This document shows positions 8,717 to 19,993 of a stretch of DNA of 64,000 nt, piece by piece (within the stretch, counting starts at the first letter, position 1; each line of letters starts with the position of its first letter). The translations under genes were made by a program, and so were the position numbers. The notes below the pieces were generated by a model that worked only from the letters and a program-made list of their open reading frames with translations, searched no databases and had not been told where the DNA came from. Source of the DNA: an uncultured bacterium (GTDB lineage: Bacteria > Verrucomicrobiota > Verrucomicrobiia > Verrucomicrobiales > DEV007); assembly GCA_963977015.1 (NCBI GenBank), contig CAXBMO010000018.1:32001-96000 (forward strand), in the 5' to 3' direction.

Positions 8717-9972
8717 CCGCGCGCCCCGGGCTGGCTTGTTCCGGCTGTTCAGGCCAACGCAACCGAATCACCCGACGATCCTGGCGGGCAAATCCCAACG
8801 GGATTTCGCATGAACAGCCCAGTGTTGCCGAAGGCTACGCTGGGATTACCGAGCCAGCACGAATCCAATCCTGAAGGGATTGCGGAAGGCTTCGGGCGTC
8901 CCTTCCGGGACGCATCCTGGCACCGTCTCTGATCCGGTGGTTGCGCTGCGCTTCACCGACCGGCTAGGTTCGGGATGAGCCTCCGGCTCTCTGCTTGACC
9001 CATCCGGCGAAGACGATGGATGGGAAAAGGACATGGTTGTCTCACGCTTTCAGCGCTCGCGAATGCGGGCATCTTGCCCCGGGGCTTTGCTCGCGTGGGC
9101 TCGCGCACCCCAGGCTGGCAGGTTCTGGCTTTCGGCCAGCTCTAGCCAGAGAACGAAACACCCAGCAGGAAGCCGGAAAAGAAATCGAAAACGTTGGCGA
9201 GGCCTGAAAGGCCGAAACACGCCAGCCCGGGGCACCGCCCCGGGTCAAAGATCCGCAAGAATCGAGCGCTGAAAGTGCAATACAATCGCTCTATGTCTCA
9301 CGCTTTCAGGGCTCGCTCGCGACTGCGGGCATCTTGACCCGGGGCTTTGCTCGCGTGGGCTCGCGCACCCCAGGCAGGCAGGTTCTGGCTTTCGGCCAGC
9401 TCTAGCCAGAGGGCGAAACACCCAGCAGGAAGCCGGAAAAGAAATCGAAAACGTTGGCGAGGCCTGAAAGGCCGAAACATGCCAGCCCGGGGCACCGCCG
9501 GGTCAAAGATCCGCAAGATTCGAGCGCTGAAAGTGCGAGACAATCGCTCTATGTCTCACGCTTTCAGCGCTCGCAACCACGGCCATCACCACCCGGGCTT
9601 TGCTCGCGTGGGCTCGCGCACCCCGGGCTGGCCTGTGATGACCTACAGGCCAACTCTCTGACTCGTGCTGTGAAGCGGACAGGATTGTCCGCACTCCTTG
9701 GCTGGCTCACTCCATCGCACCCCATCAGGCCACTGCGACCAAATCACCCGACGATCCTGGCGGGCAAAATCCCAACGGGATTTCGTACGAACAGCCCAGT
9801 GTTGCCGAAGGCTACGCTGGGTTTACCCGGGCAGCACGAATCCAATCCTGAAAGGATTGCGGAAAGCTTCGGGCATCCCTGCCGGGACGCATCCTGTCAC
9901 CGCGACTTTTCCGGTGGTTGCGCTGCGCTTCACCGACCGGCTAGGTTCGGGATGAGCCTCCGGCTCTCTGCT
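8717..9972. repeat. Cluster of REP/REPIN-like palindromic repeats: unit A twice (8749-8995, 9725-9972) around tandem ~257-bp unit B (starts 9038, 9294, partial 9552)
   Basis: Near-identical copies are visible by eye. Unit B ends are inverted (TGTCTCACGCTTTCAGCGCTCG / CGAGCGCTGAAAGTGCGAGACA). Many short hairpins occur (GGCCTGAAAGGCC, AATCCCAACGGGATT, GCGGACAGGATTGTCCGC). The cluster lies between convergent genes. Confidence 0.85.
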
Positions 9973-10024
9973 CGTTCCTTCCGTCTGCGGGGAAGCAGCC
10001 CAACCCTCGATCGGGGTTGCCAAT

Positions 10025-10951: not shown

Positions 10952-11431
10952 ATGGAATCGCACGAGGTTATTAAAGAAGCTCTCAGCAAAACGAGCCCCA
11001 AAGCGGTGGCTTCCGATTTGGGAGTCTCACTTTCCTTGGTTTACAAATGGGCGCAGCCGAATACGGAACTCGGTTCAGGAAGCCGAAATCCCCTCGACCG
11101 AATCCATGAGCTGATGAAGCTGACGGGGGAGGAGAAAATCATCCACTGGCTCTGCAAACAGGCCGGAGGTCACTATGTCCGCAATCCGGACGACCAGATC
11201 AACGACTACGAATATGCGCCGGCAACGAACGAAATTGTTCACCAATTTGCCGAACTGCTTCAGGTCATCACCCGCGCAGCGGCAGACAACACCATCACCC
11301 CGGACGAGTCGGATCGCATTCGTCAGGTTTGGGATGAACTGAAAATGATCACTGAAGGCTTTGTCAAAGCCTGCGAGGAACGACGGTTCGAAAGAATCCC
11401 GACCCCCGGCGGTCACCATCACCACGGATAG
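10952..11431 (+). CDS. Phage regulatory CII-family / HTH DNA-binding protein
   Basis: KAVASDLGVSLSLVYKWAQ HTH, NPLDRI, ADNTITPDE motif; ends in GGHHHHG. Confidence 0.75.
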   Translation: MESHEVIKEALSKTSPKAVASDLGVSLSLVYKWAQPNTELGSGSRNPLDRIHELMKLTGEEKIIHWLCKQAGGHYVRNPDDQINDYEYAPATNEIVHQFAELLQVITRAAADNTITPDESDRIRQVWDELKMITEGFVKACEERRFERIPTPGGHHHHG

Positions 11432-11488
11432 TGGTTCGGATGGGCCAGGCGGGAATGTCGTGCCTTCGACGTCTGCGGGGGAACTTCA

Positions 11489-11632
11489 GAGGGCACAGAC
11501 GGCATGTTTGCGATCGCCCAGGTCAATCCCCAAGGTCGCTTTCCGATAGATGGTAGGTCGTGTCGTTTTCATCAGCAGAGAGTCTATCAACCTCGTCCAG
11601 CGACGTGGCGCTCTGCCTTCTCATCTAATCTT
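11489..11632 (-). mobile_element. Truncated IS1111-type (IS110 family) left end with the first transposase codons
   Basis: 144 bp identical, apart from one mismatch seen, to 16983-17126; includes the subterminal IR GCCTTCTCAT; inserted after GGCTAAC-AAG. Confidence 0.92.
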
Positions 11633-11639
11633 GTTAGCC
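11633..11639 (-). other. attC R'' box (GGCTAAC) of the distal cassette; rest of the site lost at the IS remnant
   Basis: Overlaps the TAA stop of 11634..12101 and complements the (GTT)AGCC core in front of that gene. Confidence 0.75.
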
Positions 11640-12101
11640 TTTTAGTCTTCCGCGCCACCGGTTGTCGAGCTCTTGCCGGAATGCGGGAGGATCTCGATGG
11701 CTCAGCCACCATACTACGGTTTCATAGCGCTTCTTCAATTCATCGGGTAGATCTTCACAAAGTCTGTTCTTCGCTGCGTTTTGGGTCGCTTCAATTCCTT
11801 CGACTTCCGCCAGATACCATGGAAGCTCCTCCACGCTCACATCCCACTTCGGGATCAGGCGCCCAAGGTCACTGCCGATGTCGCCATCATAAGGTGGCTT
11901 GAGGAGCCAGAGAATCCCTCCCGCTACTTCCTGAGCAGCGAATCGATTCGTGTGATCGTCTTCGAAGACGCTCAGCATCGCATCCCGCAAGGCATCACTA
12001 TCGCAATTGCGCAGTCGGCGAACGAGATGCTGAATCGCTTGCCATCCATTCGGCCGATCTAGGGACGCGTATAACTCAGCTTTGATTTCGTCCGCGTCCA
12101 T
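11634..12101 (-). CDS. Integron cassette gene, hypothetical protein (155 aa)
   Basis: Promoterless ORF starting 7 nt after the core remnant AGCC and ending in the R'' box; no family recognised. Confidence 0.8.
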   Translation of the reverse strand: MDADEIKAELYASLDRPNGWQAIQHLVRRLRNCDSDALRDAMLSVFEDDHTNRFAAQEVAGGILWLLKPPYDGDIGSDLGRLIPKWDVSVEELPWYLAEVEGIEATQNAAKNRLCEDLPDELKKRYETVVWWLSHRDPPAFRQELDNRWRGRLKG

Positions 12102-12112
12102 TTTCTGAGGCT

Positions 12113-12420
12113 ATCAAGGTAGGGACACCGGTTGCCCGGCGCCCCCCTCACAGATCCCGGTGTGCGGATTTCCCGCACCGGGCTCCTCGGAGAATCGCGC
12201 ACGTTCACGCTTGGTTCTGAAGTCCTGTTGGCTCCCCATCGGATGATAAGATGGCAGGATTGCGCTCATAAGGCAAGGCGGGGTTGATAGGCGGGGTCGA
12301 TTTCTTCCACCACCCTCGCGGGCGGCAGTCGCCACACCGTGGTCCACCGGGCTAGCAGCTTTTCCCAGGTAAAGCTCTTGCGCTGGCTGCACCGATTGAG
12401 CCATTTGAAGATCAATCCCT
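12113..12420 (-). mobile_element. 3' remnant of a group II intron (not class C): maturase C-terminus, domain V and domain VI
   Basis: LIFKWLNRCSQRKSFTWEK...LPPARV maturase tail (stop 12266); DV GAGCCCGGTGCGGGAAATCCGCACACCGGGATC (AGC triad, ~12153-12185); DVI ending CCCTACCTTGAT. Confidence 0.88.
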
Positions 12421-12421
12421 T

Positions 12422-12877
12422 GACCTCCAGCACGTCGGCCGGGGGAAGAGCGCGATCCGTTACCTCGCCGCCTACGCCACCCGCAGCGCGTTTTCCGCCC
12501 AACGCCTGCTGGGCTACGACCAGAGCGGCAACCGCCTGCTCCTACGCTGGATCTCCAGCGAAACGGGCAAAGTCGGCACCCTGCACCTGGCTCCGCACGA
12601 ACTCATCCGGCGCTGGCTCCTGCACGTTCTCCCCAAAGGGTTCACCCGGATCCGGCACTACGGCTTCCTCAGCAGCGCCGCGCGCAAGAAGCGGCTCAAG
12701 ATTCGGCTCCTGCTCGGAGAACTGCGGCCCGAACCGGAACCCGTCCTTCCCGAGCACGAGGTGCCGAACTGTCCACACTGCGGCGGCACGCTGATCCACT
12801 GGTTCGACTTGCCTCGGATTTATCCGGTGCGAGGACCACCGCCATCAACATCACCATCCTTCGCCGCATCATCATGA
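12422..12877 (+). pseudogene. IS91-family (Y2 rolling-circle) transposase, C-terminal fragment
   Basis: Frame not in the ORF track: DLQHVGRGKSAIRYLAAYATR...RRWLLHVLPKGFTRIRHYGFLS...CPHCGG...RGPP, stop TGA at 12875-12877; no start codon. Confidence 0.88.
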
Positions 12878-13174
12878 CAATCGGCGCCTACCCACAAAGC
12901 CAAGTCATCCTAACACCTGCCAAATCGGGATGTCTTGGGAACGTGCGGACTCGTCCCGCGAAAAACCCGCAACTCGTCATCGCTCCTGCCTCCGCTGGGG
13001 GCTCGGACGCCACCAAGGCGCTGCCTTTCGCGTTGCTGGTGACGAATCGGCGGAGCGATTCGTCACGCAGGCCTGTGCGCGTCACTTTGCAGGATCGCCC
13101 CAGTGTCGCGTGGTCCGTAAGTCGCTCACCCTCAGCCTGAAATCGAAACCGCAAAGGAGGCATGAGGGCCCGTT

Positions 13175-15072
13175 ATCGGGTAGGAGGAGGGGTTGCCCCC
13201 TCCGTCCTCCCACACCACCGGGCATACGGTTCCGTACCACGGCGGTTCACGAAGTGGACGCATAGAAGCGAACCGAATCCAACAATCTAACAAGTCCACG
13301 TAAATCAAAGAACTTTCGGGGCATCGCCTTATTCAGATGCGAGGCTCCGGCATTCCACCACGGGCCCCGACCATTGTAGGCAGAGGCTGAAGCGCGCGCT
13401 TCATCAACCCCCAAGCCCATCAGCTTGCGCCGACGGGTTTTGGGCTTCTTCCACTGTCGCCAGAGTACACCTCGCAGCCTGCGCCGCAGCCATCGGTCCA
13501 GTTCCTCCAATACGCCCTTCACCTCGGCGTGCCGAAAGTAGGAGGCCCAGCCACGCAGCAGCGGGTTGAGATCCTCCACAATGAACCGCTCCAAATTCCG
13601 GCCGCGTCCGTGCCGAAGCAGGGCTTTGACCTTCTGGCGCAAGCGCCGCAGCGATTCGTTCGACACCTTGAGTCGTGCTTGATAGTGCATCGTTAGGCTG
13701 TAGCCAAGGAACGAACGGTTCCAAGGCCGGTCTACCGCGCTCTTTTCGGCGTTGACCTTCAACTTCAGATGTTTTCCCAGCCAGATGGTCAGGTTTTCGA
13801 GCACGCGTTCGCCTGCTGTCCGGGATGAAACGTAAATGTTCACATCATCGGCGTAGCGGCAGAAGCGATGCCCGCGTTTCTCCAGATCTTTGTCCAACTC
13901 GTCGAGTAGGATATTGCTGAGCAGCGGCGAGAGCGGGCCGCCTTGTGGCGTTCCCTGACGGCGCGGCCGCACGAGGCCGCCGTCCATCATACCCGCTTGC
14001 AGGTAGCGGCGGATCAGTCGCAAGACCCGTTTGTCCTTCACTTTACGCATCACACGGGCCATGAGCACGTCGTGGTTGACGTTGTCGAAGAACTTTTCCA
14101 GGTCCATATCGACGACCCAGCGCCGCCCGCCTCGCACGTGCTCGCGCATGGCTTTCACCGCCTGATGGGCGCTGCGCCCGGGCCGAAAGCCATAGCTGGA
14201 GTCACTGAACGTGGGATCGAAGATCGGGCCCAACACTTGCGCAGTCGCCTGTTGAATCAGACGGTCGAGCACCGTGGGTATGCCCAGAGTTCGTTCCCCC
14301 TTTCCTCCCGGTTTGGGGATTTGCACCTTACGTACTGCGTTTGGCCGGTATGTTCCGGCCAGCAGTTGTTCTTTGATTTCGGGCCAATGGATTTTGAGGA
14401 AGGGGCGCATTTGCTCCCAGCTCATGCCATCGGCCCCGGCGGCCCCTTTGTTGCGTTCTACCGCGTGGAGGGCACGCCACATGTTCTCACGATCGACGAT
14501 TGCCGCCATCAGGTCGGCTTCTTTGGATGGGTTTCCATCTGGGTTGGCCGGAACGCTCGTTGACGCCCCACATTCCAACAGCCCTGGCGGATTCTGTCCG
14601 TTACCTCTGCCGGGTGGGTCAGGCATCTCAGCCTTCTGTTCTGCATCTGCTTCGTTCATCGACAACTTGGTTGGTTAACCATCACACTTCATGTTCGGGC
14701 CTTCAGCCGGGTCGATCTCCGGCCTACTATGCCCTCTGCTGACTTCTGGCGCGTCATCCCAGCACCTCTCAATGCTGGTAGCACATGGCAACACGCCAGA
14801 TCTCCCCGGGTAATGCGCATTCACCTCCGCACTTATCCCCGCCACATATACATCAACACCTTCTGTGCAAGTATGGGACTTCGAATGTGTTGGCCTTCTC
14901 ATCCGGTATTGATGCCTCATATGTGATTTCTGTTCGTCGGGGTAGTGTTTTGCCTACGGCTTCCTTCAGACTCCACCTCACGGTGGACGCCCTTGCCGCT
15001 CAGCTAGCGGTTCCCCTTGCCGGGTCCGCGGAGGACTTGAACCTCCAAGTGAATGCGCCCTGCCGGGCGCAC
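13175..15072 (-). mobile_element. Complete class C group II intron (~1.9 kb)
   Basis: 5' end GTGCGCCCGGCA at 15072; class C-type DV GAACCGCCGTGGTACGGAACCGTATGCCCGGTGG (CGC triad); 3' end CTCCTACCCGAT at 13175; inserted immediately after a stem-loop. Confidence 0.93.
13247..14665 (-). CDS. ltrA: Group II intron reverse transcriptase/maturase (no endonuclease domain)
   Basis: NKGAAGADG, RTLGIPTVLDR, YGFRPGRSAH, DLEKFFD, GTPQGGPLSPLLSNI, RYADD, LRGWASYF. Confidence 0.96.
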   Translation of the reverse strand: MSMNEADAEQKAEMPDPPGRGNGQNPPGLLECGASTSVPANPDGNPSKEADLMAAIVDRENMWRALHAVERNKGAAGADGMSWEQMRPFLKIHWPEIKEQLLAGTYRPNAVRKVQIPKPGGKGERTLGIPTVLDRLIQQATAQVLGPIFDPTFSDSSYGFRPGRSAHQAVKAMREHVRGGRRWVVDMDLEKFFDNVNHDVLMARVMRKVKDKRVLRLIRRYLQAGMMDGGLVRPRRQGTPQGGPLSPLLSNILLDELDKDLEKRGHRFCRYADDVNIYVSSRTAGERVLENLTIWLGKHLKLKVNAEKSAVDRPWNRSFLGYSLTMHYQARLKVSNESLRRLRQKVKALLRHGRGRNLERFIVEDLNPLLRGWASYFRHAEVKGVLEELDRWLRRRLRGVLWRQWKKPKTRRRKLMGLGVDEARASASAYNGRGPWWNAGASHLNKAMPRKFFDLRGLVRLLDSVRFYASTS

Positions 15073-15127
15073 CAACAACCGATAGCTCTTGGGCTAAGCC
15101 CGGAAGCTATCTTTGGGGTTGTTCGGC
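15073..15127 (-). other. attC-like hairpin site; its R' core GTTG|AAC is split by the intron (AAC at 13172-13174)
   Basis: R'' GCCGAAC (15127-15121) complements the cassette core GTTCGGC; stems AACAACC/GGTTGTT, GATAGCT/AGCTATC, GGGC/GCCC; spacing is non-canonical. Confidence 0.7.
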
Positions 15128-15134
15128 TTGGTCT

Positions 15135-15527
15135 TCATTTGGGTGCGCGGTCCGGTTCGGGGTATCGCTGGGGAACCTGTGGATCATAGAAGCCACAGCC
15201 CAAGCTGTGTGCAACGTCTATAATCCTGTTCAGAACCTCGGAATGGTCGAGCAGCTTGTATCCGCAGGTAATAACAATCAAATGCACACTGTGCTTGTCG
15301 GCATGACAGAAGTTGACCTCGAATCCAGAATCAAATCCCCGCCAAATCAACTGGCCGTGATCTAATTCGATCTCTGGGAACGCCTTCTCGAAGCGGTCAA
15401 TCACATCCTCGCGGGGGAACGCATCAACTTCGGGATTCGGACGCTCCTGTGAGAGGGTATCCACTCTCATACCTGCATCGCCAACAAAAGGCTTCTTCTC
15501 GCGCCAAAAATAGAGGTCGTAGCTCAT
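15135..15527 (-). CDS. Integron cassette gene, hypothetical protein (130 aa)
   Basis: [11 protein letters not shown]...GFYDPQ bounded by GTTCGGC (15545-15539) and GCCGAAC (15127-15121). Confidence 0.82.
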
Positions 15528-15538
15528 CTGATTTTTCT

Positions 15539-15655
15539 GCCGAACGTCCGAGGTGTGGCAGCGGCTACTGAGAGCGCCACCTCGAAACAGGGTTGAGTGT
15601 TGAAGTAAAGAGGGTCATGCCGACTCGGGGCGTGTAGCCGCTTGTCCACCACCGC
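15539..15655 (-). other. attC site, distal part (R'' half GCAGAAC-AAG lies at 17133-17124, beyond the IS)
   Basis: Rejoined site is ~127 bp: GCAGAAC-AAGGC-GGTGGTGG...CCACACC-TCGGAC-GTTCGGC, with canonical 5/6-nt spacers, one extra base in L'' and an inner stem AGCGGCTAC/GTAGCCGCT. Confidence 0.85.
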
Positions 15656-15670
15656 CTTCCATGAGAAGGC

Positions 15671-15998
15671 CATCAAGTAGTAACATCAAAATTTCAATTT
15701 TGCTAGGGTTTGTTGTTGGGCTGGGTGGTGGTGGTTTCAGGGATGAAGGTTGAATCGCGCTTCCATTCGCACTCGTTTGGTAGAGCCACTGTTCGCTGGG
15801 CTTCGGTGCATGTTTGGATCCGGTTCATCTCTGTTCTATCACAAAGAAAAGGACGCTGCTATCTTGTTCCCGCATTCCTAACTCATAAGGTTTGATGCTG
15901 ACGCATGGACCGCAGTCGCCCCAAAGGTTGGTTGCTGGCGTTAGCTTCGCAGTCGTCCAGGAAAGGCGTTCTTGGCTTTTGAAAATTCATGTCGGTTT
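15671..15998 (-). ncRNA. Probable bridge/seek RNA region of the IS1111 element
   Basis: Non-coding end contains GAACAAG (15869-15863), matching the target flank, and ATGGAAG (15766-15760), matching the donor junction. Exact RNA ends cannot be determined. Confidence 0.7.
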
Positions 15999-17066
15999 TC
16001 AGGCGCTGGCTAACTTCATCGGCTCATACGCGGTATCGTTCTTCCAAATTGTCATCATCACCACCGCCAACTTCCGGGCGGTCGCGACCACGGCTTTCTT
16101 CTTCGCGCCACGACCGCCTCGTTGCGCTAGACGCAGGCCGCGGATTTGCAGATCGCACTCTTCGCCAAACGGTCCCAACAGATATTGGGCGCTACCGACG
16201 AGGAGGCGACGCAGATAAGCGTTCCCACATTTGCTAATCCGCAGGGACTTGTCGACCCCGCCGGATTGATCGCGCCGCGGCACCAAGCCGAGATAAGCTC
16301 CCCCATCGCGAGGGTGACGGAAACGTTGGGGATCGCCAATTGTGAGGATAAAGCAAAGCGCCGTGATCGGCCCAATCCCACGGATCTCGCGCAAGCGTTG
16401 GCTCTCCGGATAGCGTTCCTGACACAACCGCTCAATCTCGCGGTCCAGTTCCCGGATCTTTGCCGTCATCGTGTCGATCACTTGCAACGAGGGCTCGATC
16501 ATGGCTAACACCTCAGCCTCGTCCCCCTGCAGTAACATTTGAGCCCGACGGGCGAAGCAGGTCGTTTTGGGCGATGGCAGGCGAATTCCCAAACCTTTGA
16601 GTGTGAAGCGCACCGCTGAGATCACGTCCACGCGTTGGCGCACCAGATTGTCGCGCAGCTTGATCTGAAGAAGGTCGCGCTGGGCCTGCTCGCTACCGTG
16701 CACAATGGGATGCAACAGACTCGCATCCACCCGAGCCAGCTTCGCCAACATCCGCGCATCCAACTCATCGCTCTTGCGTTCGTTTTGGTAGATCGCACGC
16801 AGTTTACGTGAGTTCGCCACAATGACTTCGCATCCCAACTTGTCGAGTAGCCGACTGATCCACAGGCTATGACTTCCCACCTCCATAGCGATCCGTGCTT
16901 TGGGAAAGCGCTTCACCAACATCGCCAACCGTTCTCTGGTATTGGGGATCGTCATTTCCGCGACAATCTCGCCCTTCGCGTTGAGGGCACAGACGGCATG
17001 TTTGCGATCGCCCAGGTCAATCCCCAAGGTCGCTTTCCGATAGATGGTAGGTCGTGTCGTTTTCAT
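15999..17066 (-). CDS. IS110-family DEDD transposase/recombinase
   Basis: GIDLGD, MEVG, KSDELDA, RGIGPITA, YLGLVPRRDQSGG (catalytic Ser), ISKCGNAYLRRLL, ARKLAV. Confidence 0.96.
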   Translation of the reverse strand: MKTTRPTIYRKATLGIDLGDRKHAVCALNAKGEIVAEMTIPNTRERLAMLVKRFPKARIAMEVGSHSLWISRLLDKLGCEVIVANSRKLRAIYQNERKSDELDARMLAKLARVDASLLHPIVHGSEQAQRDLLQIKLRDNLVRQRVDVISAVRFTLKGLGIRLPSPKTTCFARRAQMLLQGDEAEVLAMIEPSLQVIDTMTAKIRELDREIERLCQERYPESQRLREIRGIGPITALCFILTIGDPQRFRHPRDGGAYLGLVPRRDQSGGVDKSLRISKCGNAYLRRLLVGSAQYLLGPFGEECDLQIRGLRLAQRGGRGAKKKAVVATARKLAVVMMTIWKNDTAYEPMKLASA

Positions 17067-17118
17067 CAGCAGAGAGTCTATCAACCTCGTCCAGCGACGA
17101 GGCGCTCTGCCTTCTCAT

Positions 17119-17724
17119 CTAATCTTGTTCTGCTTCTTTGGCTGTTATCGAATTACGTATGGCTGCCTTGAAGTGATCCAGCTTGCTGCCATTCCAGCTA
17201 AAGTCCCAATCTTCTGGGTCAAACTTCTGATTTAGCATTTTACCTAGTTCTTCATTATCTAGGCTTGCTGCCCAACGATTCTGCTCCTTCACGCACAGAG
17301 CCTCGATGCGAAGACGCTTATCTTCATCGTAGCGAATTCCTCGGCATTCAAGATACGCATGTGTCGCCTCATGGACTAGTAAGGCAGCATGAAAAGCGAT
17401 AGAAAACTCGACATCCCGTTCAGGCCAAGACTCTTCAAAGTTAATCGCGCAAGCATGCGCCCAGTGCCAATATTCAGCACCCGGCGTAGAAAGGCTCGTG
17501 TTCACGATCCAATCCAAATTCTTAGTTACGCGAGAAAACCTACGCGAATCTGTGTCCTTGAGAAGATTCAGTGAGGCTAGAATCGTGGTGTGAAAATCCA
17601 CACTTCTTCTCCTAACGTCCACAATCCGAATCGAATAGACCTCCTCGACTGTCATTGATGACCACAATCGGAGGGTGAGCTTGCGAGATACTATGCCGAT
17701 ACAGCGCCGTATGCTTCCGATCAT
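17119..17724 (-). CDS. First integron cassette gene; hypothetical protein with an HExxH motif
   Basis: AT-richer ORF bounded by GTTCTGC (17740-17734) and GCAGAAC (17133-17127); LLVHEATH; current stop is supplied by the IS end. Confidence 0.8.
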   Translation of the reverse strand: MIGSIRRCIGIVSRKLTLRLWSSMTVEEVYSIRIVDVRRRSVDFHTTILASLNLLKDTDSRRFSRVTKNLDWIVNTSLSTPGAEYWHWAHACAINFEESWPERDVEFSIAFHAALLVHEATHAYLECRGIRYDEDKRLRIEALCVKEQNRWAASLDNEELGKMLNQKFDPEDWDFSWNGSKLDHFKAAIRNSITAKEAEQD

Positions 17725-17733
17725 AATTTCTTA

Positions 17734-17760
17734 GCAGAACAGTATATTATTTCCCTTGAA
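17734..17760 (-). other. Putative attI site
   Basis: Core GTTCTGC preceded by AT-rich sequence (GAAATAATATACT) with no attC palindrome; lies between the first cassette and the integrase remnant. Confidence 0.6.
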
Positions 17761-17997
17761 GGGCTGATATCCAAATCACGCAATTGGACCTAAATTCTTA
17801 AGGGATGTTGATCGTTTAATTTGGGAATTCATGATTTCTCTAAAAAGGTATGAGGATTATCAGTTCCTAGACTGCCAACCCAAGATTGCAGATGGACTAG
17901 CAATACGGGATATCGTCGTTTTCCTCAAGGAAGTTCCGACGTGGTGAGGACTTTTCTTGGAAGGGGCCGTTCTCATTTTTGATTTCCACTTCTCGAC

Positions 17998-18062
17998 CAG
18001 GAATTATTGGGACATGGGGATGCGAAGACGGGCAGTTGCATTTGCATGCCATGAATCGTGGG
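17998..18062 (+). pseudogene. intI: Integron-integrase (tyrosine recombinase) C-terminal remnant
   Basis: QELLGHGDAKT, then a 1-nt frameshift, then QLHLHAMNRG; this matches box II (QELLGHxDxxTTxIYxHxxNRG) with His at the catalytic Tyr position; divergent from the array. Confidence 0.7.
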
Positions 18063-18598
18063 ATGGATGGACAGGAAGATGGAAGTTGGGGGCTTGGAAG
18101 TGACGGCGACAGGATGTCGCCGCTACCGCGTAGGCTGAATCCGGCGGTGAGAGTGGCTGCACCGGATTCCTCCGTGCGTTCGACGGAAAATGCCACCGAT
18201 CTCGAAACCCGGCGTTTTTGCAATCTTGCGACGTTGTATTGAAGGAAATCCGCGAAGTTGCGCCATCCTAACACGCTCATCTTCCTGCAAAATCTCTGAG
18301 CAGTTCATCCAAATCGAAAACCCGTTTAGCTTAAACGAGAACCCGCTTGGCTGAGACGAAAACCTGGTTAGCTGAAGGCGTTTTATCTATAACCAGGACC
18401 CGGGGACGTTTATCCGGTTCTCCTGTTTTCAGGGTTTGGTCGGGGGCGGGTTGCGTTTGGTTTGGTTCTTTTGGGCTGCCAGGGCGGCGATTTTTCGGGT
18501 GAGAGTTTGGGTGTGATGGGGATGCTCGGATTCGACTGCCAGTCGAATCTACGGGGCTGGTTCGGAATTTTGGCAAATTCCGCTACCTCCTCACTTCC

Positions 18599-19993
18599 CT
18601 AGGCAAGAATGTCGTGCAGCACGTTGCCGTGAACATCGGTCAACCGGACGTCCCGCCCCGCGTATCGATAGGTAAGGTCTTCGTGGTCGATCCCGACCTG
18701 GTGGAGGACGGTGGCCCAGAGATCGAAGATGGTCGCTTTCCCATCCACGACATGGTAGCCGTAATCGTCCGTGGCGCCGTAGGCGGTGCCACCTTTGATT
18801 CCGCCGCCAGCCATCCAAACACTGAATCCAAAGGGATTGTGATCGCGGCCATTTGAACCTTGGGAAAATGGGGTTCGGCCAAATTCTCCCGTGAAAATAA
18901 TGAGCGTTTCATCAAGCATGCCGCGTTGCTTGAGGTCCTTGATCAATGCGGCAATGGGCTGATCGACCTGTTGCCCCATGGCGCGATGTCCCTCTTCGAG
19001 CGCGCCATGTTGATCCCAGGGATTGGGGGCTCCGCCAGCTCCAAGCTTTTTGGTTAGGCACGAGAGTTCGACAAAGCGGACGCCGCGCTCCACCAATCGC
19101 CGTGCGAGGATGGCTTGCCGGGCGTAGGCCGCTTTTTCGGGATCGGGATCGTCGAGCCCGTAGAGCTTTTTCGTAATCTCGCTTTCGCCACGCAGGTCAC
19201 AGACTTCCGGCACGGCGGATTGCATGCGGAAGGCGGTCTCGTAGTTCATGATGGCGGCTTCCACATCTGCGTCGCCACCGGTGGATTTGGCGAAGCCCTG
19301 ATCGAGACGGTTCACAAAGTCCAATCTGGATCGCTGAATGGACGCAACCTGGGACGGCGCAACGTTGGGGATGGCCGGTGTGTTGTCTGCCTTGATGATG
19401 GAAGCCTGGTGCTGGGCGGGAAGAAATCCGCTGCTGAACAACCCAACGCCCCCATGAGGCGCGACGGCGTGCCCACTCTGCAGGACCACATAGCTGGGCA
19501 GGTTTTCGTTGGCAGAACCAAGCCCATAGCTCATCCAGGCACCGGCGCTGGGGTGGCCCAAAAACGGAAAGCCGGAATGGATCATGAAGTTCCCTTGCGC
19601 ATGCTCGTTCACGGGAGTGGTCATGGAGCGGATGACCGCGATGTCGTCGGCACAGTCTCCGATTTGTTCGAAGATCTCGCTGACGGGCAACCCGCTTTCC
19701 CCGCGATTGCGAAACGCGAACGGGCTGGGCATGATCTTGCCGTTGTTGTTGAACTGGGTCCGCTCAACCTTCATCGGCATCTCCTGGCCCGCTTCCTTCT
19801 TGAGCCTTGGCTTGGGATCAAAGGAATCGACGTGGGAGACGCCACCCGACATGTAGCAGAGAATGACGTTCTTGGCCTTGGCCTTTGGCAGGGCGGCGTT
19901 CGTATTGGGAGCCAGCAAACCTGACAAGGCGACCAAGCCGAACCCACTCGAGGCGCGGGCGAGGATCTGGCGGCGGGAGATTTCAGCGAACAT
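18599..19993 (-). CDS. DUF1501 domain protein
   Basis: [47 protein letters not shown]; start placed at MFAEIS. Confidence 0.92.

Follow-up and report, generated by a model that had tools for sequence, protein, structure and literature searches.

A cassette array without an adjoining integrase, and with mobile elements at its recombination sites, in the genome of an uncultured bacterium

Introduction

A run of three gene cassettes interrupted by mobile elements raises the question of whether such a run is the wreck of a resident integron or an array that arrived without an integrase. The run lies in the window analyzed here, a stretch of 64,000 nucleotides (nt) corresponding to positions 32001-96000 of contig C18 in an assembly of 51 contigs (G000:C18:32001-96000), and its parts are described along the minus strand, from position 18000 to position 11489. 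The host is called a planctomycete (Planctomycetota) in this report; the source line of the DNA gives Verrucomicrobiota (DEV007). An earlier note on the same DNA had described a decayed integron whose integrase is dead and whose array has been frozen by site-specific parasites. Every element listed in that note was found where it had been placed or within a few bases, and its picture of an integron-type array with occupied sites was borne out, with an insertion sequence (IS), an intron or a transposon fragment at each recombination site but the first. The origin of the array is read differently here. Very probably, a module made up of an attI-like leader and cassettes A, B and C but no integrase inserted at this locus, and its sites were hit by site-specific parasites.

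Results

Cassettes and their borders

Read on the minus strand, the block consists of a leader, open reading frame (ORF) A, an IS within the attC site of cassette A, ORF B, a short hairpin, a group II intron, a piece of an IS91-family element, the remnant of a second intron, ORF C and the left end of a second IS copy. The three cassettes are promoterless and lie in one array. Cassette A begins with TTCTGC at 17739, its core GTTCTGC being at 17740-17734, and its ORF (17119..17724, minus strand; 201 amino acids (aa)) takes its last codon and stop from the IS. The ORF of cassette B occupies 15135..15527 (minus strand; 130 aa). Cassette C starts at AGCC (12112-12109) and its ORF occupies 11634..12101 (minus strand; 155 aa). 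Homologues of ORFs A, B and C were detected in two, one and two, respectively, of 150 other genomes of the order, and none of the three ORFs had a Pfam or NCBIfam match. The ORF A product contains the motif LLVHEATHAY (HExxH) and, judging by this motif, may be a small metalloprotease-like cassette protein.

Each cassette start is complementary to the R'' box at the end of the same cassette, as had been noticed before. The complement is exact over seven bases for cassettes A (GTTCTGC/GCAGAAC) and B (GTTCGGC/GCCGAAC) and extends over the four visible bases of cassette C (AGCC/GGCT). Successive cassettes on contig C36 of the same genome follow the same rule (GTTCGAT/ATCGAAC twice, GTTCGCT/AGCGAAC and GTTCGGT/ACCGAAC), as do the first cassettes of contigs C19 and C6, which brings the number of cassettes with complementary borders to at least eight. 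By our own estimate, chance would yield ~0.002 exact 7-mer complements per cassette within ~40 nt of a stop codon. The complementary borders are not due to chance.

Arrival of the block by insertion

The genes that flank the block, a CII-like gene and a DUF1501 gene, are convergent and only 10-47 nt apart in all three congeners (G001, G002 and G003), where the site is empty. The whole block therefore arrived as an insertion, and, set against these three genomes, the interval ~11464-18598 of the window is a strain-specific insertion of ~7.1 kb. Its right border is marked by a 17-nt imperfect direct repeat, AGGCAAGAATGTCGTGC (18601..18617, plus strand), which holds the last DUF1501 codons, and its left border by the repeat AGGCGGGAATGTCGTGC (17 nt; 11447..11463, plus strand), a relic of the old DUF1501 3' end. 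The flanking repeat suggests site-specific integration or a duplication upon insertion.

The proposal of a decayed integron holds that a complete integron was present at this locus, that its intI gene decayed in place and that the array was frozen later. The array does open with an attI-like site, it has no working integrase next to it, and a stretch of ~600 nt from the leader to the DUF1501 gene lacks an explanation, as such a history would have it. No IntI-like frame is left in 11300-18700, where a tblastn search with the genome's own IntI detected no intI remnant (best E 0.84). The whole block is missing between the flanking genes of the three congeners, and no integrase was detected within 3 kb upstream of any of the six strong leader copies in the genome (only 445 nt precede the copy on C36). 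Decay of a resident integron is thus a quite unlikely origin.

The integrase could not be called dead either. Matches to TIGR02249 were confined to contigs C1, C2, C15 and C31, and the IntI encoded at C1:216131-217426 scored 291 bits (cut-off, 265 bits), has the IntI-specific patch and the HxxR...Y residues, and is apparently intact as judged from its sequence. An intI gene adjoining both an attI site and the array, as in a complete integron, was not found at the locus. The absence of the block from all three congeners, the lack of an intI remnant and the intact-looking IntI on another contig together point to an inserted array without an integrase, comparable to the clusters of attC sites that have no integron integrase (CALIN), and not to decay in place. 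The array is an integrase-less module that came in by insertion, presumably made by the C1 IntI or by an IntI since lost.

An IntI of the C1 type (~291 bits, profile positions 11-313) is also present in G001 and G002, with much the same score, and most relatives carry a further, higher-scoring IntI (>320 bits) that is not in this genome. The C1 type may be a conserved, perhaps domesticated, paralogue.

Read assemblies gave additional views of the junctions. Logan contigs of run X4 span the right junction of the IS (406 nt) and the junction of leader and cassette A (300 nt), and a 187-nt Logan contig of run X3 spans the junction of cassette C and the IS fragment; the runs that gave these contigs may be the assembly's own source, and stretches without contig cover are uninformative. 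In run X2, loose contig ends lie exactly at 17738, 15656, 17133, 12113 and 11641, with other sequence beyond. These ends coincide with recombination or insertion points, and paralogous copies in the X2 strain may account for them.

The attI-like leader

The GTTCTGC previously called attI-like proved to be the end of a multi-copy leader of ~255 nt (17735..17991, minus strand), which closes with ...ATACTG|TT, the G being at 17740. Six strong copies were detected by nhmmer (227-270 bits), one in the window, two on C41 and one each on C36, C19 and C6, along with a seventh, weak copy; the recurring stretch upstream of cassette A spans 240 nt. Similarity stops exactly at G|TT in 6/6 copies, after which they diverge (TTCTGC, TTATGC, TTCGGC, TTAGCT, TTCGCT and TTAGCC), and in four of the six the next cassette ends in the matching R'' (the window, C36 with AGCTAAC, C19 with AGCGAAC and C6 with GGCTAAC). 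An 18-codon ORF within the leader (MNSQIKRSTSLKNLGPIA*; 17776..17832, minus strand) is kept in frame and length in five of the six copies. Folding of the leader alignment gave no covarying hairpin (covariation term +0.48; compensatory changes in two of 27 predicted pairs). A conserved end at G|TT ahead of first cassettes that vary, together with the lack of an attC-like hairpin, is what an attI site would look like; the leader would act as attI and may also be a promoter or a translation leader.

A scan with a leader pattern found five metagenome contigs, all 100% identical to contigs of this genome and therefore not independent, and a scan of genome contigs found none. The phrases "orphan attI" and "multiple attI" had no occurrences in one limited literature collection. 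Three leader copies were seen at C41:1-1400 and C41:14619-14847, two of them 880 nt apart with one small ORF between; this pair may be a tandem attI-cassette-attI arrangement. The same ~200-nt sequence, with tandem CTGACGGCTGTTAC units, follows two other small arrays (C19:71033-71230 and C4:216690-216500) and may be a common 3' segment of array modules.

A covarying attC family and the split site of cassette A

A stretch of C36 resembles the flank of the right end of the IS, and iterated nhmmer searches detected about a dozen sites of ~125 nt in the genome. Alignment of twelve intact sites gave the layout nnnnAAC-AAG-ACGCGG...stem...variable region...stem-(T)TGAC-GTTnnnn. For them, RNAalifold predicted a stem of 17 pairs whose unpaired bases are on the 5' arm, and 14 of the 17 pairs have compensatory changes. 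When the three R-box pairs were added (20 pairs), 87.5% of the cells paired, compared with 67.1% in column shuffles (0/500 reached the observed value) and only 27-40% when the partners were slid out of register. The family, A1, thus has the R''-L''...L'-R' architecture and paired stem of attC sites.

A covariance model built from the 12 intact sites (R1) matched the site of cassette A, site 1, at 82.6 bits (E 1.3e-17) despite the replacement of its R'' by the IS end, in agreement with the claim that an IS1111 element had split an attC. The 5' piece of the site is R'' GCAGAAC (17133-17127) with its AAG spacer (17124..17133, minus strand), in the register nnnnAAC-AAG. The 3' piece (15539..15658, minus strand) comprises AAG, the L'' stem, the variable region, L', GAC and R' GTTCGGC (15545-15539). 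The earlier note had proposed to rejoin the site in silico. After the IS and one AAG copy were removed by script, the rejoined site scored 72.0 bits over positions 4-123 of a hidden Markov model (HMM) built without site 1, compared with 64.9 bits unrejoined and 71-110 bits for the 12 members, and its minimum-energy fold pairs R'' with R'. The fold energy was at shuffle level, and covariation and register, rather than stability, accordingly carry the case. On that basis, the IS splits a genuine attC that belongs to the covarying ~125-nt family.

The family is widespread among relatives. R1 matches were present in 34 of 41 related genomes, including 24/24 others of the same family, and 22 of the 41 encode an IntI over the TIGR02249 cut-off; some of the arrays adjoin intI, as in the complete genome G029. 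These distributions bear on the view that no integron biology is involved, the repeats being repetitive extragenic palindromic (REP)-like or miniature inverted-repeat transposable element (MITE)-like and the complementary cores a product of chance. The ~125-nt repeats are indeed dispersed, many of them single, and their fold energies are unremarkable. The exact complementarity between start and own R'' in at least eight cassettes would be left unaccounted for, as would the unpaired stem bases on the 5' arm, the AAC/GTT triplets at the foot of a covarying stem and the co-occurrence of the repeats with IntI across the clade, and we consider this view extremely unlikely.

The same model was used to ask how the cassette ORFs are placed elsewhere, since the earlier note had made its reading depend on homologues that are cassette-borne in other genomes. 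The ORF C homologue in G114 sits between two R1 matches, and the ORF A homologue in G108 has one R1 match 1.2 kb off and a weak one abutting. Two of the five homologues thus have an R1 match nearby, and the other three have none.

An Rfam search of the window gave intron matches only and no attC family. A naive scan of the genome for exact 7-mer inverted cores of the type AAC...GTT was discarded, as it detected another palindromic repeat family and no arrays. These dispersed, near-perfect palindromes of 75-90 nt (GTAAAACGGGACACCGGCCCGTTCC...GGAACGGGCCGGTGTCCCGTTTTAC) are unrelated to the attC family, and copies were seen at C1:601625, C6:249198, C11:50991, C13:136589, C27:26841 and C41:22882 and 24129.

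An IS1111-type element with a fixed target

The element in site 1 is a complete IS1111-type IS of 1465 nt (15659..17123, minus strand). Its transposase gene (17084-15999) is followed by a 340-nt non-coding region (15998-15659), its subterminal inverted repeats are GATGAGAAGGC and GCCTTCTCATG, and its transposase has the motif GLVPRRDQSG, all of them hallmarks of IS1111. The transposase matches PF01548 and PF02371 and scored 230 bits (cut-off, 140 bits) with NF033542, the "IS110 family RNA-guided transposase". Identity does not exceed 37% for any of the 25 best-ranked plasmid matches and is less than 60% for all of the 5000 matches listed, which suggests a placement outside the monophyletic ISPa21/ISPst6 clade.

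The element has one fixed insertion position in this genome. The genome contains one complete copy and three left-end fragments, and 4/4 left ends lie at nnnnAAC-AAG| (GCAGAAC, GGCTAAC, AGCGAAC and ACCGAAC). One fragment closes the block: a truncated left end of 141 nt (11489..11629, minus strand), part of a 147-nt repeat 99% identical to 17129-16983, adjoins R'' GGCTAAC (11639-11633) and AAG, which are the sole remainder of the attC of cassette C (11630..11639, minus strand). Relatives of the IS, 64-72% identical at the nt level, were present in nine of 60 other genomes of the family and keep its ends (ATTAGATGAGAAGGC...GCCTTCTCATGG|AAG). Six of ten of their left ends lie at nAAC-AAG (or ACAAC-AAG or CGCAC-AAG), and 10/10 right ends are followed by AAG. 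At four loci from four other genera (L066, L067, L068 and L078), an R1 match on the same strand abuts the right end of the IS. The fixed position within attC is thus that of the published IS1111-attC elements, and the antisense orientation of those elements is not, as the transposase gene is in cassette sense here and at all four of these loci.

The non-coding region contains two conserved blocks, GAACAAGAT (~15869) and ATGGAAGCGCG (~15766), which were compared in an alignment of 11 IS copies. Block 1 carries ...AACAAGAT(A/G)GC..., a copy of the left junction (target AACAAG plus the first IS bases), and is kept across the aligned relatives, as is block 2 with ATGGAAGC. The sequence ...ATGGAAGCnnGA... 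corresponds to the right end of the IS plus AAG and continues into a CG-rich stretch resembling the start of the attC L''. At locus L076, the left flank is TTCAAAG instead of AACAAG and block 1 reads TCTAAGAT, so that guide and target have changed together. The two blocks would act as guides for targeting. A seekRNA derived from the non-coding region matches the target in IS1111 elements, including the attC-targeting ISKpn4 and ISPst6, according to one account of these elements (PMC11187229), and the pattern seen here fits that mechanism because both junction sequences are copied in the conserved non-coding region.

The hairpin after cassette B and its occupants

Cassette B ends in R'' GCCGAAC (15127-15121), followed by a short hairpin that ends in GGTTGTTG (together 15073..15127, minus strand; site 2). 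The 48-nt hairpin (15120-15073) folds far better than expected (z = -5.3; 0/200 shuffles fold as well), and its geometry consists of R'', 3 nt, a stem bulged on the 5' arm, 2 nt and GTTGAAC, the rejoined 3' end fitting GTTRRRY. Homologous hairpins were found on C4, on C11 and in G075.

A complete group II intron of 1898 nt adjoins the hairpin (13175..15072, minus strand; protein ORF, 14665-13247). The earlier note had the hairpin split by a class C intron; the intron is there, but at the 3' edge of the hairpin (GGTTGTTG^AAC), and the stem is not split. Domains I-IV were recognized by Rfam (141 and 71 bits), and the intron protein has only the RVT_1 and GIIM domains and scored 419 bits with TIGR04416. 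Its closest solved relative is the GsI-IIC reverse transcriptase (468 bits over its full length), followed by two IIC-type entries, with LtrA at 156 and a IIB enzyme at 137 bits; the class labels of these PDB reverse-transcriptase entries are in part our assumption. A reverse transcriptase and maturase without an endonuclease domain, and an insertion just 3' of a stem-loop, are as in group IIC introns. Insertion on the bottom strand at R'', antisense to the cassettes, which characterizes the IIC-attC lineage, was not observed, as the intron is in cassette sense and on the R' side. The intron borders are fixed by two empty sites. The paralogous site on C4 (216948/216947) reads ...AGCTATCGGTTGTTG^AACGGGCCC, and a contig of run X2, 98% identical over the neighboring 752 nt, skips exactly 13175-15072 (1898 nt). 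The insertion is therefore recent and polymorphic.

On the other side of the intron is the C-terminal part of an IS91-family (Y2 HUH) transposase, its last 146 codons (12437..12874, plus strand; PF04986, E 3.3e-20, profile positions 102-180 of 183). Just 3' of its stop codon, a non-coding end of ~300 nt (12875..13174, plus strand) abuts GAAC; it is 76% identical to C4:216687-216947 and has a partial match on C28. A tblastn search with the fragment detected no other copy in the genome, and a DNA search with the IS91 end and the hairpin in the 150 genomes of the order gave one 60-nt match. In run X2, an IS91-type element seems to run on past the truncation point seen here (at window position 12423), and the junction of IS fragment and flank at 11497 differs by a few tens of bases.

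Two readings of the hairpin were weighed. Site 2 is likely to be a short-type attC whose R' formerly read GTTG|AAC. It may instead be the terminal hairpin of an IS91-family element inserted at the GAAC of the R'' of cassette B, in which case the intron chose a transposon hairpin. IS91-family elements target GAAC/CAAG. The hairpin and the ~300-nt IS91 end recur jointly on C4, the hairpin recurs on C11, each hairpin comes straight after xxxGAAC, and R1 does not match it. Against a transposon origin, the hairpin in G075 has compensatory stem changes and no IS91 end and is followed by GTTGGAC, which fits GTTRRRY; on C11, the sequence beyond GGTTGTTG differs too; between the window and C4, likeness is 90% for the hairpin but 76% for the IS91 end; and the geometry fits a short attC. 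We therefore regard a transposon hairpin as rather unlikely and treat site 2 below as a short attC.

A second group II intron is present as a 3' remnant comprising the end of the protein gene and domains V-VI (12113..12440, minus strand; RF00029, 40.2 bits, with the model end at 12113). A PDB search with its protein fragment found nothing. Partial copies of the remnant also occur on C36, C11, C28 and C6. The remnant gives way to AGCC in the window and to AGTC on C36; both complement the opening four bases of their cassette's R'', which places the second intron at GTT^RRRY. The C28 copy is followed by AGGC, yet no GCCTAAC lies downstream, and the C11 copy has another junction, so that an intron inside the core holds for two of the four copies that show a 3' junction. 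The two introns share the cassette sense and a position on the R' side, at GTTG^AAC and GTT^AGCC, respectively.

Other features of the locus

The spacer between the DUF1501 gene and the leader (17992..18598, no strand assigned) was found only at this locus. A BLAST search of it against the genome gave only multi-copy matches of 23-49 nt (query positions 784-863), and the ORF at 17897-18280 had no Pfam match. Short REP-like palindromes in the spacer (~18508-18587), such as GGATTCGACTGCCAGTCGAATC, occur in many copies in this genome and in the congeners. Outside the block, nested direct repeats were seen at 8749-9983, between the first DUF1501 gene and a cytochrome c gene: 217 nt (two copies, 91% identical), 186 nt (two copies, 97%), 77 nt (two copies, 95%) and 41 nt (three copies).

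Discussion

The anatomy of the block, the attC family with its covariation, the fixed target of the IS, the empty sites and the break of the leader at G|TT are observations from which the following course of events can be proposed. An integron integrase would have put the cassettes together by crossovers at G|TT. An RNA-guided IS1111-type IS would have entered the attC of cassette A between R''-AAG and L'', and also the attC of cassette C, its second copy then being truncated. An IS91-family element would have landed at the GAAC beside the short attC of cassette B. The class C intron would have retrohomed to the 3' foot of the cassette B hairpin, and recently so, as a close strain is without it. 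A second intron would already have entered the R' core before cassette C (GTT^AGCC), and a deletion would then have joined its 3' remnant to the IS91 fragment. The order of the later events is only partly known. The term frozen, as used in the earlier note, suits cassette C and the attC of cassette A; it is less certain for cassette B, whose AAC/GTT triplets survive.

Several results weigh against this proposal. Site 1 is the sole R1 match in the window, sites 2 and 3 being unmatched, and its fold energy is not better than that of shuffles (z = 0.22 split and -0.08 rejoined). The lack of R1 matches near three of the five cassette-ORF homologues counts here as well. The short junction matches in the non-coding region of the IS are not significant on their own. 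The leader was present in 0/40 relatives, this organism and run X2 being its only known sources; a sigma-70 scan found no more promoter sites in the leader region than chance would give (one site found, 1.0 expected), and neither an attC nor a significant fold was detected upstream of cassette A (17734-17900; z = 0.24 and -0.25). The C1 IntI is flanked by housekeeping genes only, with no cassettes and no leader near, so that its link to the arrays is unproven. Finally, independent contigs span only part of the block junctions.

A broader arrangement may be suggested tentatively, at somewhat less than even chance. The genome would hold several dispersed platforms without an integrase, each with an orphan attI-like leader, its 18-codon ORF and its own cassettes, with a distant IntI acting on all of them in trans. 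RNA-guided IS1111-type elements of a separate lineage, oriented in cassette sense and programmed for the R''-AAG-L'' junction conserved in the clade's attC sites, would have acquired attC targeting independently, through reprogramming of their guide RNA.

The locus bears on the origin of arrays without an integrase, as an array with its own attI-like leader is here a clear insertion relative to three congeners and not the wreck of a resident integron. It also extends attC-specific parasitism to Planctomycetota, as the host is labelled here. Several classes of mobile element converge on one kind of structured DNA site, where group II introns of class C and of other kinds, a rolling-circle element and a DEDD transposase guided by RNA together erode the mobility of the cassettes. 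Since the non-coding region of the IS carries copies of both junctions, its targeting rule is directly testable and, in principle, reprogrammable.

Comparison with known systems

In class 1 integrons, attI1 is a double-stranded site and has a short ORF, ORF-11, just upstream. The leader described here resembles attI1 in its conserved end at G|TT before a variable first cassette and in the short ORF just upstream, with no sequence similarity claimed. Unlike attI1, this putative attI is multi-copy and has no adjoining intI.

Clusters of attC sites (CALIN) and single attC sites lacking an integron integrase (SALIN) are known, and small arrays may arise by insertion rather than decay, as one preprint describes in its treatment of such sites (bioRxiv 10.1101/2022.09.11.507474). 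The array resembles these in that its attC-bounded cassettes lie far from intI, with an isolated IntI elsewhere in the genome. It differs from CALIN, and from arrays inserted at attG sites, in that it opens with a conserved ~255-nt leader present six to seven times in the genome. The block also has ~600 nt of extra sequence, and its flanking 17-nt direct repeat is not predicted by insertion at attG.

The hallmarks of IS1111 elements given in one study of the group are a DEDD transposase, the motif GL-P----S/TG, subterminal inverted repeats and a long non-coding region 3' of tnp (PMC11187229), and the IS1111-attC elements treated in another are antisense to the cassettes (PMC3001079). The IS shares with the IS1111-attC group (ISPa21, ISPst6 and ISKpn4) its DEDD IS110/IS1111 transposase, the GL-P----SG motif and a fixed insertion near the 5' end of attC. 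It differs in that the IS and its four attC-borne relatives are in cassette sense, and in its host, here called a planctomycete.

Group IIC-attC introns, as covered in two papers, have R'' (TTGT/T) on the bottom strand as their insertion site and are oriented antisense to the cassettes (PMC3001079, PMC7923331). The second of these mentions precedents for the sense orientation, namely IIB introns of halophiles and, in Enterobacter cloacae, one unusual IIC intron (PMC7923331). The first intron is like S.ma.I2 and its relatives in its class C-type protein without an endonuclease domain. Both introns differ from that group in their cassette sense and their position on the R' side. The IS91-family piece is like IS91/ISCR rolling-circle elements in its Y2_Tnp domain and an end abutting GAAC and unlike complete members in that only the last ~146 codons and one end remain. 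All of these components are of known kinds, and the advance accordingly lies in variants and their context: IS1111-type elements of Planctomycetota (the host label used here) that carry putative guides and are oriented in cassette sense, sense-oriented introns at R' and multi-copy orphan attI-like leaders.

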